Source: Escherichia coli | Lineage (GTDB): Bacteria > Pseudomonadota > Gammaproteobacteria > Enterobacterales > Enterobacteriaceae | Length of the DNA stretch: 64,000 bases | Strand: one strand, 5' to 3' | Assembly (NCBI RefSeq): GCF_001677475.2 | Contig: NZ_CP015229.1 | In this document: positions 2,717 through 47,091 of the stretch, piece by piece | Layout of the letters: each line of letters starts with the position of its first letter | Position numbering within the stretch: position 1 is the stretch's first letter | Notes under the pieces: generated by a model | What the model saw: only the letters and a program-made list of their open reading frames with translations | What the model was told of the DNA's origin: nothing | The model's database searches: none | Position numbers and translations under genes: made by a program

Positions 2717-4132
2717 ATGGCAGGAAATAAACCCTTCAACAAACAGCAGGCTGAACCCCGCGAACGCGATCCACAAGTTGCCGGGCTGAAAGTGCCTCCG
2801 CACTCGATCGAAGCGGAGCAGTCGGTGTTGGGCGGTTTAATGCTGGATAACGAACGCTGGGACGATGTAGCCGAGCGTGTGGTGGCAGACGATTTTTACA
2901 CCCGCCCACACCGCCATATCTTTACTGAAATGGCGCGTTTACAGGAAAGCGGTAGTCCTATCGATCTGATTACCCTTGCGGAATCGCTGGAACGCCAGGG
3001 GCAACTCGATAGCGTCGGTGGATTTGCTTATCTGGCAGAACTGTCAAAAAATACGCCAAGTGCGGCGAACATCAGTGCTTATGCTGACATCGTGCGTGAA
3101 CGTGCCGTTGTTCGCGAGATGATCTCGGTTGCGAATGAGATTGCCGAAGCCGGTTTTGATCCACAGGGGCGCACCAGCGAAGATCTGCTGGACCTGGCTG
3201 AATCCCGCGTCTTTAAAATTGCCGAAAGTCGTGCAAACAAAGACGAAGGCCCGAAGAACATCGCCGATGTGCTCGACGCCACCGTGGCGCGTATTGAGCA
3301 GTTGTTTCAGCAGCCACACGATGGCGTTACCGGGGTAAACACCGGTTATGACGATCTCAACAAAAAAACCGCTGGCTTGCAGCCGTCGGATTTGATCATC
3401 GTCGCCGCGCGTCCGTCGATGGGTAAAACGACATTTGCGATGAACCTCGTCGAAAACGCGGCGATGTTGCAGGATAAACCGGTACTTATCTTCTCGCTGG
3501 AGATGCCATCAGAACAGATTATGATGCGTTCTCTGGCGTCGCTGTCGCGCGTTGACCAGACTAAAATCCGTACCGGGCAGCTCGATGATGAAGACTGGGC
3601 GCGCATTTCCGGCACCATGGGTATTTTGCTCGAAAAACGTAATATCTATATCGATGACTCCTCCGGCCTGACGCCAACGGAAGTGCGTTCCCGCGCGCGC
3701 CGTATTGCCCGTGAACACGGCGGCATCGGGCTTATCATGATCGACTACCTGCAACTGATGCGCGTACCGGCGCTTTCCGATAACCGTACGCTGGAAATTG
3801 CAGAAATCTCCCGCTCGCTGAAAGCACTGGCGAAAGAACTGAACGTGCCGGTGGTGGCGCTGTCCCAGTTGAACCGTTCTCTGGAACAACGTGCCGACAA
3901 ACGTCCGGTCAACTCTGACCTGCGTGAATCTGGCTCTATCGAGCAGGATGCGGACTTGATCATGTTTATCTATCGTGATGAGGTGTATCACGAAAACAGT
4001 GATTTAAAAGGCATCGCGGAAATTATTATCGGTAAACAACGTAACGGCCCAATCGGGACGGTACGCCTGACCTTTAACGGTCAATGGTCGCGCTTCGACA
4101 ACTATGCGGGGCCGCAGTACGACGACGAATAA
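2717..4132 (+). CDS. dnaB: replicative DNA helicase
   Basis: 471 aa; Walker A GKTTF, RecA-like C-terminal domain; size identical to E. coli DnaB. Confidence 0.95.
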   Translation: MAGNKPFNKQQAEPRERDPQVAGLKVPPHSIEAEQSVLGGLMLDNERWDDVAERVVADDFYTRPHRHIFTEMARLQESGSPIDLITLAESLERQGQLDSVGGFAYLAELSKNTPSAANISAYADIVRERAVVREMISVANEIAEAGFDPQGRTSEDLLDLAESRVFKIAESRANKDEGPKNIADVLDATVARIEQLFQQPHDGVTGVNTGYDDLNKKTAGLQPSDLIIVAARPSMGKTTFAMNLVENAAMLQDKPVLIFSLEMPSEQIMMRSLASLSRVDQTKIRTGQLDDEDWARISGTMGILLEKRNIYIDDSSGLTPTEVRSRARRIAREHGGIGLIMIDYLQLMRVPALSDNRTLEIAEISRSLKALAKELNVPVVALSQLNRSLEQRADKRPVNSDLRESGSIEQDADLIMFIYRDEVYHENSDLKGIAEIIIGKQRNGPIGTVRLTFNGQWSRFDNYAGPQYDDE

Positions 4133-43337: not shown

Positions 43338-45323
43338 TTAATTTGGGGTTACGATATTCACCCACAAATCGAAATTATCCAGACAGGCAATAATTTCTTC
43401 CAGTTTCGCGCCATTGCCAATAATTTTGGCTTTCTTCGCTTTTACCAGATCCGCCATTTTGGCTTGTCCGGTCAGCACGGCGTGCAGATCTTCACGGCTA
43501 ATGTAGAAGGACGCATTGGCTTGCGGTTGCAGCGTTTTACGGTAGTTAAGCACGCTATCGTTCAGGGTCAGGTTGAGGTTATCGCCGTTACTCATATTGA
43601 AGTTCAGGCTGATGTTCTTCCCGGCGGCTTTTTCGCTATCGAGGCGAACAGCCATAAAGTCGAACAGCATTTCGACCGACATCCCGCGAATGGTATCCGG
43701 GGAACCGGTGGTGCCGTGGCTGAACTTATGTACCCCTTCGCGCAGCTCTTTCGCGCCAGTCAGGTAGAAACCGCGCCAGGTGGCTGACTCCGCCTGATAA
43801 CCAAGCTGTTCAAAGTTATTGGCTTGCAGATTCTTCGCCACCTGGTCGCCCGGATTGGCGGCAATCACCTGTTTCAGTAACTCTGCCGACCAGCGATAAT
43901 CTCCCTGCTTGTTTGCTTCTTGCGCCAGGCTGATGACGCGTGCGGAACCGCCCAACGCCTGTACATAACGTTTACCCATCTCCACCTGACCATACGGATG
44001 CAGGTTTGCCGGGTTACCGTCGTAATAGCCGAGGTAGAAGTTATATACCGCACGGGCGTTGTGGCTGACAGAACCGTAATAGCCACGGCTGGCCCAGTTA
44101 TTGGCAAGCGCAGGCGGCAGCTTAATCATGTCGCCGATTTCATTCATGGTGTAGCCCTGGTTTGCCAGGTGCAGGGTCTGGTCGTGAATGTACTTGATAG
44201 TATCGCGATATTTACCAATATAATCATTGATATGCTTATTGCCCCATACCGGCCAGGTGTGCGGCATAAACAGGACTTCCGCTTCGTTACCCCACATATC
44301 CAGCGTTTCGTTCAGGTACTCGGTCCACTTGTTGGTATCGCGGGTTTTCGCGCCGCGCAGAGTGTAGAAGTTGTGCAGGGTATGCGTGGCGTTCTCGGCG
44401 GTACACAGGGCTTTCAGGGCCGGAATATAGAAGTGCATTTCCGCTGGCGCTTCGCTGCCTGGGGTCATCAGGAAGTCAAACTCCAGGCCGTCGATAATCA
44501 TCTTCTCGCCAGTTCTGACGATCGTTTTGGTTGGCGCAATAATGCTTGGGTCACCGGTTGCCAGCGTCACGCCAAGGCCATTACCCACGTTACCCTGCGC
44601 GTTGTGCGGCAGTAACAGGCCGTAAGAGTAGAGCGCACGGCGGCTCATAATGTTACCCGCCAGTACGTTTTCACTGATGGCTTCGTCCATAAATCCAGCA
44701 GGGGCAATCACCTGCACTTTGCCCGATTTAACATCGGCTTCAGAGATAATACCTTTCACGCCACCATAGTGGTCAGTGTGGCTGTGGGTGTAGATAACCG
44801 CAACAATCGGTTTTTGCGGACGATGCTGGAAGTAAAGGTCAAGGGCGGCTTTTGCGGCAGGCGGCGTTACCAGCGGGTCGATAACAATAATGCCTTTCTC
44901 GCCTTCCACGAACGTAATGTTGGAGATGTCCTGACCACGCACCTGATACATTTTATCGGTGACTTTGAACAGGCCAGAAATACCGTTGATCTGTGACTGA
45001 CGCCACAGGCTGGGGTTTACGGTTTCCGGCGCAGCGGCATTAATATCAAATTTGTAATCGTCTGCGCGGTAGTAAACTTTACCGTTCGCATCACGCAGAA
45101 TACCTTCGTTCAGCAGCGGAGCGATAAATCCACGCTGGGCATCGTCAAAATCCTGACGATCGCTAAACGGTAATGATTTGGCGTAATTCTGATTAACCTG
45201 TTGCGTATATTGGGAGGCGGCTTTCGCTTCCTCTTTCGCGTAAGCGGTATTTACCATCATGCCGCTGGCGGCGGTTAACGCAATAACAATCCTGCTCAAA
45301 CGGAATAACCGAGAGTTATTCAT
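43338..45323 (-). CDS. yjcS: alkyl/aryl-sulfatase (metallo-beta-lactamase fold)
   Basis: 661 aa; signal peptide; HxHxDH zinc motif ([11 protein letters not shown]). Confidence 0.9.
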
Positions 45324-45575
45324 ATAAATCTCCATTTATCATTTGTGTCGTAAATATGTAATCCATGCAAAATACGTCATTTAAAGCTGGCGATATCATA
45401 ATTGGGAAATTGCGACTTTAATAAGTAGAAGTGTGAGCTGAACGCGCCATTTTATTAGGCATTTGTGCTGAAGAGGGAAAAGTACGCAAATTTATTATCT
45501 CTGTAAATAATATGAGGTGTTTTATATATTTATTATATATATTGTACTTCGGCAAATACTGAGCACAATTAATCA

Positions 45576-45893
45576 ATGCAACCGGTGTTTTTTATTAAAA
45601 AACGTACCGGAGCAATGGGCGGTCATGTCGCTGGCACCGCAGGATTCTGTGTTGCTGTGCCAGCCTTTTATTCATGGTCAATGAGTGAGGGGATTGATAA
45701 AGAAACCAGGTCGTCAGAGCGCACTGATTATCCGCATTACGCCAGTGAAGTTGCACTGGCTTTTGGTTCACGAGTGGTTGGCCTCGAACTGGCAAAAATG
45801 ATTGTGGATGCGTGGCTGGGCGCGCAGTACGAAGGCGGTCGTCATCAACAACGCGTGGAGGCGATTACGGCAATAGAGCAGCGGAGAAATTGA
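45576..45893 (+). CDS. hypothetical small protein at the yjcS/yjdP junction
   Basis: 105-aa ORF preceded by a very AT-rich 230-bp leader; no recognisable motif. Confidence 0.35.
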   Translation: MQPVFFIKKRTGAMGGHVAGTAGFCVAVPAFYSWSMSEGIDKETRSSERTDYPHYASEVALAFGSRVVGLELAKMIVDAWLGAQYEGGRHQQRVEAITAIEQRRN

Positions 45894-45961
45894 GATTCAT
45901 CCACTACTTGCATGGATGAGTAATGACTAATGTGGATAGAGTTTCTTTTTGAGGTTGGCTA

Positions 45962-46291
45962 ATGAAACGCTTTCCGCTATTTCTTTTATTCACCCTGCTC
46001 ACGCTGTCCACCGTTCCGGCCCAGGCCGATATTATCGACGACACCATTGGCAATATTCAGCAGGCGATTAACGACGCTTATAACCCTGACCGTGGGCGAG
46101 ACTATGAAGATTCGCACGACGACGGCTGGCAGCGTGAAGTGAGCGACGATCGGCGCAGACAATATGACGACCGCCGCCGCCAGTTTGAAGATCGCCGCAG
46201 GCAGCTGGACGATCGCCAGCGCCAGCTTGATCAGGAGCGTCGGCAACTGGAGGATGAAGAGCGGAGAATGGAAGATGAGTATGGGCGATGA
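45962..46291 (+). CDS. yjdP: secreted, Arg/Asp/Glu-rich repeat protein
   Basis: 109 aa; signal peptide; repeated DDRRRQ/RRQL units. Confidence 0.8.
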   Translation: MKRFPLFLLFTLLTLSTVPAQADIIDDTIGNIQQAINDAYNPDRGRDYEDSHDDGWQREVSDDRRRQYDDRRRQFEDRRRQLDDRQRQLDQERRQLEDEERRMEDEYGR

Positions 46292-46332
46292 GGTAGGCTC
46301 GGGTGAGGGGGCCAGCGAGCACATTCTCCCCA

Positions 46333-47091
46333 TCACGCCACCCCAATCTCCATCCCATCAAACCCCGCCTCAAACCCCGACGGCAGTGCGTTTTCCATCA
46401 GCCACGCATCAAACTGGTGGCTGATATGGGTCAGAATCACCCGTGGCGAGCGGATAACCTGATTCAGCGCAAGCACGGTATTTAAATCACAGTGATTACG
46501 CGGTGCATCCTCGCGCGGCGGGTGGCTGCAATCAATCACCATTACCTGCGGCTGATTATTGCGTAAAAATTTCAGCGTTTTTTCCGGCAAGCCAGCGGTG
46601 TCAGACAGCCACGCCACCCGGCTGTGTGCCGTTTCCAGCAGATAACCGAAGGTCAGTTTTGAGTGGTTGAGCGGCAGCGGCGTGACCTGTAATCCCTGCA
46701 AATCAAACATCACAAATGGCTCCACCGTGTGGCTGAAATCAAGCAGGCCCGGATGTTTAAACAGATCGTCGCAGCCCTGTTCATCCGGCGGGCCGTAGAT
46801 CGGGATCGAATCGCCCACGCCCCAGCGCAGCGGAAACAGCCCCTGCACGTGATCCATATGGTAGTGCGTCAGCAAAAACTGCTGGAACGATCCGGGCGAC
46901 CAGCGATCGGCGAGATCGTGCAGCCCGGCGTCGATCAGGGTGATCGCGTCGTTAAACTTCACGACGCCGCTGCATGGCTGGCGGCGATACTGCGGTGAGC
47001 GCCGCGCTCTGGCGCAGGCCGCGCACTCACAGCCCCATGCGGGAACGCCCTGTGCGCCGCCAGTGCCAGTAAGTGTGAGGGTCAGGCTCAT
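46333..47091 (-). CDS. phnP: phosphoribosyl cyclic phosphodiesterase (metallo-beta-lactamase)
   Basis: 252 aa; HxHxDH motif ([10 protein letters not shown]). Confidence 0.95.

Follow-up and report, generated by a model that had tools for sequence, protein, structure and literature searches.

The yjdP gene of Escherichia coli is predicted to encode an exported, charged helical protein and is preceded by a candidate RcsB box

A stretch of 64,000 nucleotides of E. coli DNA (NCBI RefSeq assembly GCF_001677475.2, contig NZ_CP015229.1; hereafter the window) contains yjdP, a known and ordinary gene carried by almost all genomes of E. coli. The explanation that best accounts for the evidence gathered here, and which we judge to be probable, if by a small measure, is that yjdP would constitute a single-gene unit, that its product would be an exported, charged, rod-like protein, and that its promoter would be activated by RcsB. 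RefSeq annotation and curated family models already cover the gene, together with its signal peptide and DDRRRQL repeat; what is new are hypotheses at the level of annotation, namely that the repeat region is a helix rather than disordered, that the number of heptads is fixed at six, that an RcsB box has left a footprint upstream of the gene, and that a repeat within the signal peptide is polymorphic.

Identity and layout of the gene

Positions 45962-46291 (+) correspond exactly to an open reading frame that runs from ATG to stop codon and specifies 109 aa. When the product was compared with the NCBIfam model NF041443 ('DDRRRQL repeat protein YjdP'), a score of 148.2 bits was obtained against a cutoff of 90 (E = 7.2e-44), the alignment covering profile positions 1-101 of 101. 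By this curated HMM, the gene in the window is a plain full-length member of the YjdP family, which bears out the name yjdP given to it in the original prediction, a reading made from the sequence without database searches; the curated family name already rests on the repeat noticed in that reading. The Pfam family PF28054 (YjdP) is precomputed on homologues 98-99% identical to the window protein, while a local scan with a Pfam-A copy predating PF28054 rendered only sub-threshold, coiled-coil-like matches (e.g. DUF7900, E = 0.029). Of the 5,426 complete E. coli genomes, 5,404 gave a Megablast match to yjdP, and in each of these the gene bears the YjdP family name. The allele in the window shows 99.7% DNA identity to the nearest complete-genome record, and has H52 where the common protein has R (R52H). 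Apart from this residue, which lies in the linker, nothing material distinguishes the window allele from the NF041443/PF28054 family, with which it shares the architecture, the repeat and the genomic position beside phnP. The names 'Skp family chaperone' and 'RNase H-like nuclease' found on JGI homologues are automatic labels that were backed by no search, and were discarded. The features read or predicted in and around the gene are as follows.

45891..45904 (+): RcsB-box-like motif TGAGATTCATCCAC, overlapping an upstream rpiB remnant whose stop codon supplies its first three bases
45928..45933 (+): putative -10 hexamer TAATGT; it would imply a transcription start near 45940 and place the centre of the box near -42.5
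45951..45954 (+): Shine-Dalgarno sequence GAGG, 7 nt before the yjdP ATG, read from the sequence
45962-46291 (+): yjdP open reading frame, 109 aa, made up of a 22-residue signal peptide and an 87-aa mature chain
45962..46027 (+): signal peptide, residues 1-22, with predicted cleavage between AQA and D, from the rule-based n/h/c layout of the translation
45986..46012 (+): degenerate 9-nt repeat (L-F/L/S-T triplet) in the hydrophobic core of the signal peptide, with two to three units in the window
46028..46084 (+): N-terminal amphipathic helix DIIDDTIGNIQQAINDAYN, residues 23-41, predicted from AlphaFold2, hydrophobic moment and conservation
46085..46144 (+): acidic linker, residues 42-61, predicted by AlphaFold2 to be disordered; it holds R52H
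46145..46270 (+): six heptad repeats [D/E][D/E]R[R/Q]RQ[Y/F/L/M], residues 62-103, from TRF, the heptad table and lag-7 identity
46271..46291 (+): acidic tail EDEYGR and stop codon, from the translation

yjdP as a transcription unit of its own

The gene located upstream of yjdP varies with the lineage, and can be rpiB, a gene for a hybrid sensor kinase (O157 island OI167), yjcS or an fdh-like gene. Downstream, phnP is convergent with yjdP, and in E. albertii yjdP is retained with the als and phn operons both absent. Together, these observations indicate that yjdP is a transcription unit of its own, and they rule out a functional link to the phn or als operons. In published RNA-seq data, yjdP gathered 478 and 672 reads versus 96 and 61 for the upstream rpiB, the two genes changing in opposite directions (PMC6286996, supplement). 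A terminator search and folding of positions 46280-46350 revealed no significant hairpin past the end of yjdP (z = 0.95).

A candidate RcsB box upstream of yjdP

When the regions upstream of yjdP were aligned (79 distinct loci), similarity was found to start abruptly at TTGAGATTCCTCCGCTAC, the sequence further upstream being unrelated; the GAG block at the Shine-Dalgarno sequence was also kept across loci. A motif of the form TG(A/G)GA-N4-TC(C/T)-N-(C/G) was shared by all 84 sequences, those of the window and of 83 orthologous loci, at a position between -71 and -75 relative to the ATG. The consensus published for the RcsB box is TN(G/A)GAN4TC(T/C)NA (PMC7913699); the motif in the window matches it at 7 of the 8 specified positions, the final A being a C. 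Between genera, the motif varies at positions that are degenerate in the RcsB consensus, the final A being replaced. The motif resembles the validated RcsB site of osmC (TGAGATTTATCCTA), and is like the crystallised RcsB site of rprA (TGAGACGAATCTGA), which spans -33 to -53 (PMC7913699), both in sequence and in its position relative to the -10. A TAnnnT hexamer follows the box in 82 of the 84 loci, at a distance of 23 nt in 76 of them and of 24 nt in 6. Within the window, the RcsB-type pattern was found once, versus 1.28 times expected by chance; since the motif by itself is no rarer than chance would have it, the case for an RcsB box rests on the phylogenetic footprint together with the published induction of the gene.

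Regarding the latter, yjdP RNA increases 9.5- and 10.6-fold in the presence of a LolCDE inhibitor (PMC5105897, Table 1), in a table where Rcs targets predominate (osmB, bdm, the wca genes, rcsA, ivy, mliC and yjbEFGH). RpoS and Cpx genes were induced as well in this data set (PMC5105897), so that the induction of yjdP is not specific to Rcs. Searches of the literature and of supplementary files found no direct Rcs-dependence, rcsB-mutant data, structure experiment or phenotype for yjdP. Judged from the footprint and the induction, direct control of yjdP by RcsB is likely.

The conserved block might also be the target of another regulator (a heterodimer partner of RcsB, CsiR or an RpoS-dependent element), or a core promoter element, a reading that we regard as unlikely. 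It would accommodate the missing terminal A of the consensus and the co-induction of RpoS and Cpx genes, as well as the ChIP-seq peak of CsiR found at yjdP and the 3.5-fold repression seen when CsiR is induced (PMC5217608). The sequence TTGAGA, moreover, looks like a -35 hexamer; however, it was rejected as such because no conserved -10 is found 16-18 nt downstream of it. Instead, the TAnnnT hexamer lies 23-24 nt past the 14-bp box, as occurs at rprA, and the positions that vary between genera are exactly those at which RcsB sites are degenerate, which argues for RcsB. A sigma-70 promoter scan of positions 45300-46500 returned no site and no canonical -35/-10 pair; this was not surprising, as it is what would be expected of an activator-dependent promoter with a poor -35.

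The signal peptide and its variable 9-nt repeat

Residues 1-22 of YjdP (MKRFPLFLLFTLLTLSTVPAQA, followed by D) are organised like a Sec signal peptide, with n, h and c parts and A-x-A at -3/-1. In a rule-based reading, MKR forms the n part, FPLFLLFTLLTLSTV the h part, and PAQA, preceding the D, the c part. This layout bears out the signal peptide of the original prediction, and A-x-A followed by D or N is kept in 78 of 83 YjdP orthologues. A lipobox ([LVI][ASTVI][GAS]C) is absent from the cleavage site, the YjdP of the window having no cysteine; in the 21 orthologues whose signal peptides do have cysteines, the surrounding residues (e.g. LLFC) do not fit a lipobox. The presence of a signal peptide predicted to be cleavable makes export likely, and points to the periplasm as the probable location of YjdP. 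No localisation or proteomic report on YjdP was found in the searchable literature.

The degenerate triplet repeat in the hydrophobic core of the signal peptide corresponds, in other E. coli strains, to perfect 9-nt units (CTGTTCACG, Leu-Phe-Thr) that give rise to proteins of 112 and 118 aa. It behaves as a variable-number repeat, with YjdP lengths ranging from 112 to about 121 aa among E. coli strains. When evenly sampled genomes were inspected, matched yjdP lengths of 339, 348, 357 and 366 nt were seen in 5 of 60. This repeat is a commoner length polymorphism of yjdP than changes in the number of heptads.

Heptad repeats of the mature protein

TRF detected a 21-nt period at positions 46145-46217 (score 76). 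When the YjdP sequence was compared with itself, the identity reached 0.63, 0.50 and 0.48 at lags of 7, 14 and 21, respectively; lag 8 gave 0.33, and no other lag outside the multiples of 7 exceeded this value. In register, the six heptads read DDRRRQY, DDRRRQF, EDRRRQL, DDRQRQL, DQERRQL and EDEERRM; hydrophobic residues recurring six times in a row at an interval of 7 arose in only 1.5e-5 of the shuffles of the repeat segment. The tandem repeats described in the original prediction are therefore real, although the unit proposed there, DDRRRQ(Y/F/L)(D/E), had 8 residues because the first acidic residue of the following unit was counted in; the true period is of 7 residues (21 nt). The statement that repeats dominate the product after the signal peptide, ending in an acidic tail, held for the tail (EDEYGR) but not for the extent of the repeats, which make up 42 of the 87 mature residues. 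A non-repeat N-terminal part of 39 residues (23-61) had been missed. The composition is as unusual as had been suggested: charged residues account for 54% of the positions in the mature protein, and for 69% of those in the repeat region. The net charge of the mature chain is -9, concentrated in its N-terminal half.

Over 83 loci, the consensus heptad is D/E, D/E, R, R/Q, R (92%), Q (73%) and L/Y/F/M. The residue at position 7 is L in 72% of cases, Y in 16%, F in 5% and M in 5%, while the residues located 3-4 positions away from it are R, Q, E or D. With a single hydrophobic position per heptad, the a/d core of a canonical coiled coil is absent.

Predicted structure of YjdP

The order of charges in the repeat region departs from that of its shuffled versions. 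Pairs of opposite charge at i+3/i+4 number 34, versus 20.6 ± 3.3 in shuffles (a fraction of 1e-4 reached 34), and pairs of like charge number 2, versus 19.4 ± 3.3. As read from the sequence, this pattern is of the type that stabilises an alpha-helix through salt bridges between side chains. When mature YjdP was modelled with AlphaFold2 together with 13 diverse family members, one unbroken helix of ~54 residues was predicted (mature residues 33-86; block pLDDT 83-95), a result to be read knowing that AlphaFold2 tends to give a helix for any charged heptad sequence. Aspartate is a weaker helix former than glutamate. Mature residues 2-18 were predicted to be helical as well (pLDDT about 58), and residues 19-32 had no secondary structure, the pLDDT being <50 for residues 21-30; the pTM of the monomer was low (0.39). 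The N-terminal helix showed a hydrophobic moment of 0.52, versus 0.205 ± 0.10 in shuffles, its hydrophobic residues falling at mature positions 3, 7, 10, 14 and 17. The repeat region is thus predicted to be a long charged helix, not disordered.

A helix with heptad periodicity might oligomerise as a coiled coil. According to this possibility, YjdP would be an Lpp-like periplasmic rod or spacer held together by the heptad seam and by the a/d-type N-terminal helix, with a length set in whole heptads. The strict 7-residue period with its conserved hydrophobic position would agree with it, as would length variants that shift by whole heptads only and the spacing of the hydrophobic residues in the N-terminal helix. 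When a tandem dimer joined by a GS linker was modelled, the pTM was 0.45 versus 0.39 for the monomer; however, the pLDDT was not raised, and that of the N-terminal helix fell to about 42. A search with the YjdP profile against PDB sequences gave only weak matches to coiled-coil or designed-helix proteins, the best being M protein (E = 0.024), and these would also agree with a coiled coil. Foldseek found no match in the PDB for the monomer model, although a fold search with a single long helix is uninformative; for the fused dimer, it found only non-significant matches to extended helices, with no hairpin or coiled coil. Neither the sequence nor the fold searches of the PDB identified a relative. 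Moreover, a hydrophobic residue occupies just one core position, the second being R/Q/E, and there is neither a lipobox nor a conserved C-terminal lysine for Lpp-type anchoring. We view a coiled-coil oligomer as improbable.

Conservation, repeat number and selection

The YjdP family is small and narrow, with 50 clusters at 50% identity among 1.84 billion representatives. The 80 genomic loci recovered all belong to Enterobacteriaceae and to >20 genera, including Escherichia, Citrobacter, Enterobacter, Raoultella, Kosakonia, Kluyvera, Leclercia, Buttiauxella and Cedecea, as well as Klebsiella oxytoca. The layout of a signal peptide followed by DDRRRQL-type heptads is shared by 83 orthologous loci; 76 of them have six heptads, 4 have five, 2 have seven and 1 has eight. 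The variable parts are the signal peptide and the linker, the latter varying more across genera than any other segment of the mature chain. For yjdP as a whole, dN/dS lies between 0.06 and 0.30. The repeat region has a pN of 0.03-0.25, and its pS ranges from 0.17 (closest pair) to 0.97, being largely saturated. For the N-terminal helix, dN/dS is 0.06-0.09 in 6 of 13 pairs, and in the rest ranges from 0 (no nonsynonymous change) to 0.33 or is undefined. The repeat region is thus under strong purifying selection, with individual positions conserved and not just composition.

The alleles that depart from six heptads do so in exact units. A 102-aa allele of Escherichia shows an exact 21-nt deletion, and a 123-aa allele of E. 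albertii an exact 42-nt tandem duplication. At ≥95% identity, the 102-aa allele was present in 18 of 5,405 complete-genome records, and it was found on >1,000 contigs of a larger collection. The comparison of repeat number among strains that the original prediction had proposed therefore points to a number that is nearly fixed at six, with rare changes of whole heptads. An invariant repeat coupled with absence of expression, the outcome named as contrary to that prediction, was not what was found, since rare heptad variants exist and the gene is both transcribed and inducible.

These data also bear on the original proposal of a disordered, secreted, low-complexity polyampholyte, in which composition rather than structure would matter and the repeat number would drift between strains. 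The high proportion of charged residues, the pLDDT <50 of the linker, the existence of the 102- and 123-aa alleles, and the lack of a globular fold or of a PDB match would all be compatible with such a protein. Against it, AlphaFold2 gives a confident helix for the repeat region, the order of the charges is far from random in a helix-stabilising way, each heptad position is kept (e.g. the R at position 5 in 92% of cases, and the hydrophobic residue at position 7), the dN/dS is low, and 92% of the loci examined have six heptads. Disorder would fit the acidic linker, with its low pLDDT and variable sequence, but not the repeat region, whose predicted helix (pLDDT 83-95), helix-type charge order and position-wise conservation all speak against it; as a description of the whole protein, the proposal is distinctly unlikely.

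Finally, the idea that yjdP is a spurious or decaying reading frame devoid of function, to which the disruption of the gene by IS1 in one strain, its absence from the reduced-genome literature other than in listings, and the lack of a known phenotype might be thought to lend weight, can be considered effectively refuted and has next to no probability, given the occurrence of yjdP in >20 genera and in nearly all complete E. coli genomes (5,404 of 5,426), the purifying selection acting on it, its transcription and inducibility, and the conservation of its promoter region and ribosome-binding site.

Comparison with known proteins

Charged single alpha-helix domains (ER/K, SAH) occur in, for example, myosin VI/X and caldesmon. 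YjdP shares with them a long helix (predicted in its case), a dense set of opposite charges at i/i+3/i+4 with few clashes between like charges, and the lack of a globular core. It differs in that its helix is built on D and R (plus Q) instead of E and K, in its predicted export to the periplasm, and in having a strictly conserved hydrophobic residue at every 7th position, a seam that textbook ER/K helices lack.

The Braun lipoprotein Lpp, domain II of TolA, and CpoB are periplasmic coiled coils or rods. YjdP is likewise small and probably exported, with a dominant (predicted) heptad-periodic helix and a length quantised in heptads. Unlike Lpp, it has no lipobox, no C-terminal lysine for linkage to peptidoglycan, and one hydrophobic core position per heptad; oligomerisation as in Lpp-type rods was not supported by the fused-dimer model or by Foldseek. 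YjdP can thus be likened to ER/K helices for its charge network and to Lpp-type rods for its heptad quantisation, but lacks a defining feature of each.

With the small Rcs-induced envelope proteins OsmB, Bdm, Ivy, MliC, YpeC and YmgD/G, yjdP has in common its induction upon inhibition of LolCDE; its product has no sequence similarity to them. Spy, CpxP and Skp are, like YjdP, small, exported, induced by envelope stress and helical (as predicted in the case of YjdP); a Pfam scan gave no match of YjdP to the OmpH/Skp or LTXXQ families at E < 1. Hydrophilins are said to have been defined by Garay-Arroyo et al. in 2000 by a glycine content >6% and high hydrophilicity. YjdP is highly hydrophilic, as hydrophilins and LEA-like proteins are, but the mature chain contains only 4 Gly in 87 residues (4.6%), which sets it apart from them.

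Proposed mechanism and role

According to the model that we favour, damage to the envelope (e.g. mislocalisation of lipoproteins, or damage to the peptidoglycan or the outer membrane) would switch on the Rcs phosphorelay, and RcsB~P would bind the candidate box at 45891-45904, centred near -42.5. From an activator-dependent promoter, transcription would then most likely start at about 45940, ~22 nt ahead of the ATG. The YjdP precursor would be exported through Sec and cleaved after AQA, releasing a mature protein of 87 residues that would consist of an amphipathic helix of 18 residues, an acidic flexible linker of ~20 residues, and a helix of ~54 residues. The latter, ~8 nm long and made of six heptads of the type acidic-acidic-R-R/Q-R-Q-hydrophobic, would form a rod stabilised by salt bridges and bearing a single hydrophobic seam. 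The acidic N-terminal half and this seam might bind components of the envelope or cationic agents.

Our best guess is that YjdP may be made under stress to act in the periplasm as a shield or a binding rod. Analogy with other small periplasmic proteins induced by Rcs leads us to prefer a protective or binding role, such as the shielding of envelope components or the sequestering of cationic agents, over that of a structural spacer. A more specific reading, in which all of the following would hold jointly, is quite doubtful: that YjdP is an Rcs-induced, periplasmic, charged single alpha-helix, a rigid rod of ~8 nm with a fixed length of six heptads; that it serves, in the stressed envelope, as a spacer or as a polycation-binding shield; and that the variable LFT repeat tunes its export in some E. 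coli lineages.

Significance

The follow-up of this gene yields concrete hypotheses that are cheap to pursue, namely a conserved charged helix of fixed length and a promoter of its own with an RcsB-box-like site across >20 genera. Such a site would place yjdP in the Rcs envelope-stress response, beside lysozyme inhibitors and osmotic-stress lipoproteins. If this is true, YjdP would be another small periplasmic effector of Rcs, and would offer a tractable system in which to study, outside the cytoplasm, a helix stabilised by salt bridges.

Upstream junction of yjdP

The als (allose) operon is missing from the window; the slot upstream of yjdP at which it is absent (45336-45893) follows yjcS:

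43338-45335, minus strand, yjcS

Beyond yjcS lies an rpiB remnant made up of two pieces, in which approximately codons 29-53 are fused to codons 118-149, the fusion point being a GCACTGGC microhomology near 45750-45760. This arrangement of yjcS, rpiB remnant and yjdP is common to 1,568 of 5,426 complete E. coli genomes; in O157, the slot that holds the remnant in the window is occupied by the OI167 island. The TGA stop codon of the upstream gene provides the first three bases of the conserved RcsB-box-like motif (45891-45893 in the window; 2914-2916 in the comparison locus L003), an overlap seen with two different upstream genes, namely the rpiB remnant in the window and a hybrid sensor kinase in O157. 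Whatever the variable cargo upstream, its end thus always coincides precisely with the start of the conserved yjdP promoter block. A second regulatory input to yjdP may be CsiR, for which a ChIP-seq peak has been reported within K-12 yjdP, with CsiR induction leading to a 3.5-fold repression (PMC5217608).

Repeats outside the heptads

The hydrophobic core of the YjdP signal peptide is encoded in part by a 9-nt (Leu-Phe-Thr) tandem repeat, found at the following positions in the window and in two yjdP loci of other genomes:

45986-46012, window
3025-3078, L001
3025-3060, L002

Some E. coli lineages carry perfect CTGTTCACG units in variable copy number, which results in matched yjdP lengths of 339, 348, 357 and 366 nt in 5 of the 60 genomes sampled. 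The window copy of this repeat is degenerate, a version that is presumably stable. In Raoultella (L049, L076 and L041) and Klebsiella (L033 and L045), the acidic linker of YjdP has its own short repeat, two to four copies of (D)DDRY or DDGRY. These lineages thus show a second low-complexity expansion specific to them and distinct from the heptads.

Downstream spacer and disruption of yjdP

The spacer separating yjdP from the convergent phnP gene spans 41 nt in the window (46292-46332), where no significant hairpin was found (z = 0.95). Its length is 27 nt in L001, L002 and L005, whereas O157 and FLI21 have longer versions of 76 nt and 146 nt, respectively. For the K-12 spacer, a published study reports a conserved G-quadruplex/hairpin element (PMC5100583). 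In E. coli FLI21, yjdP itself is split by an IS1X2 insertion (L004, 2074-3179), so that this isolate, at least, can do without the gene.
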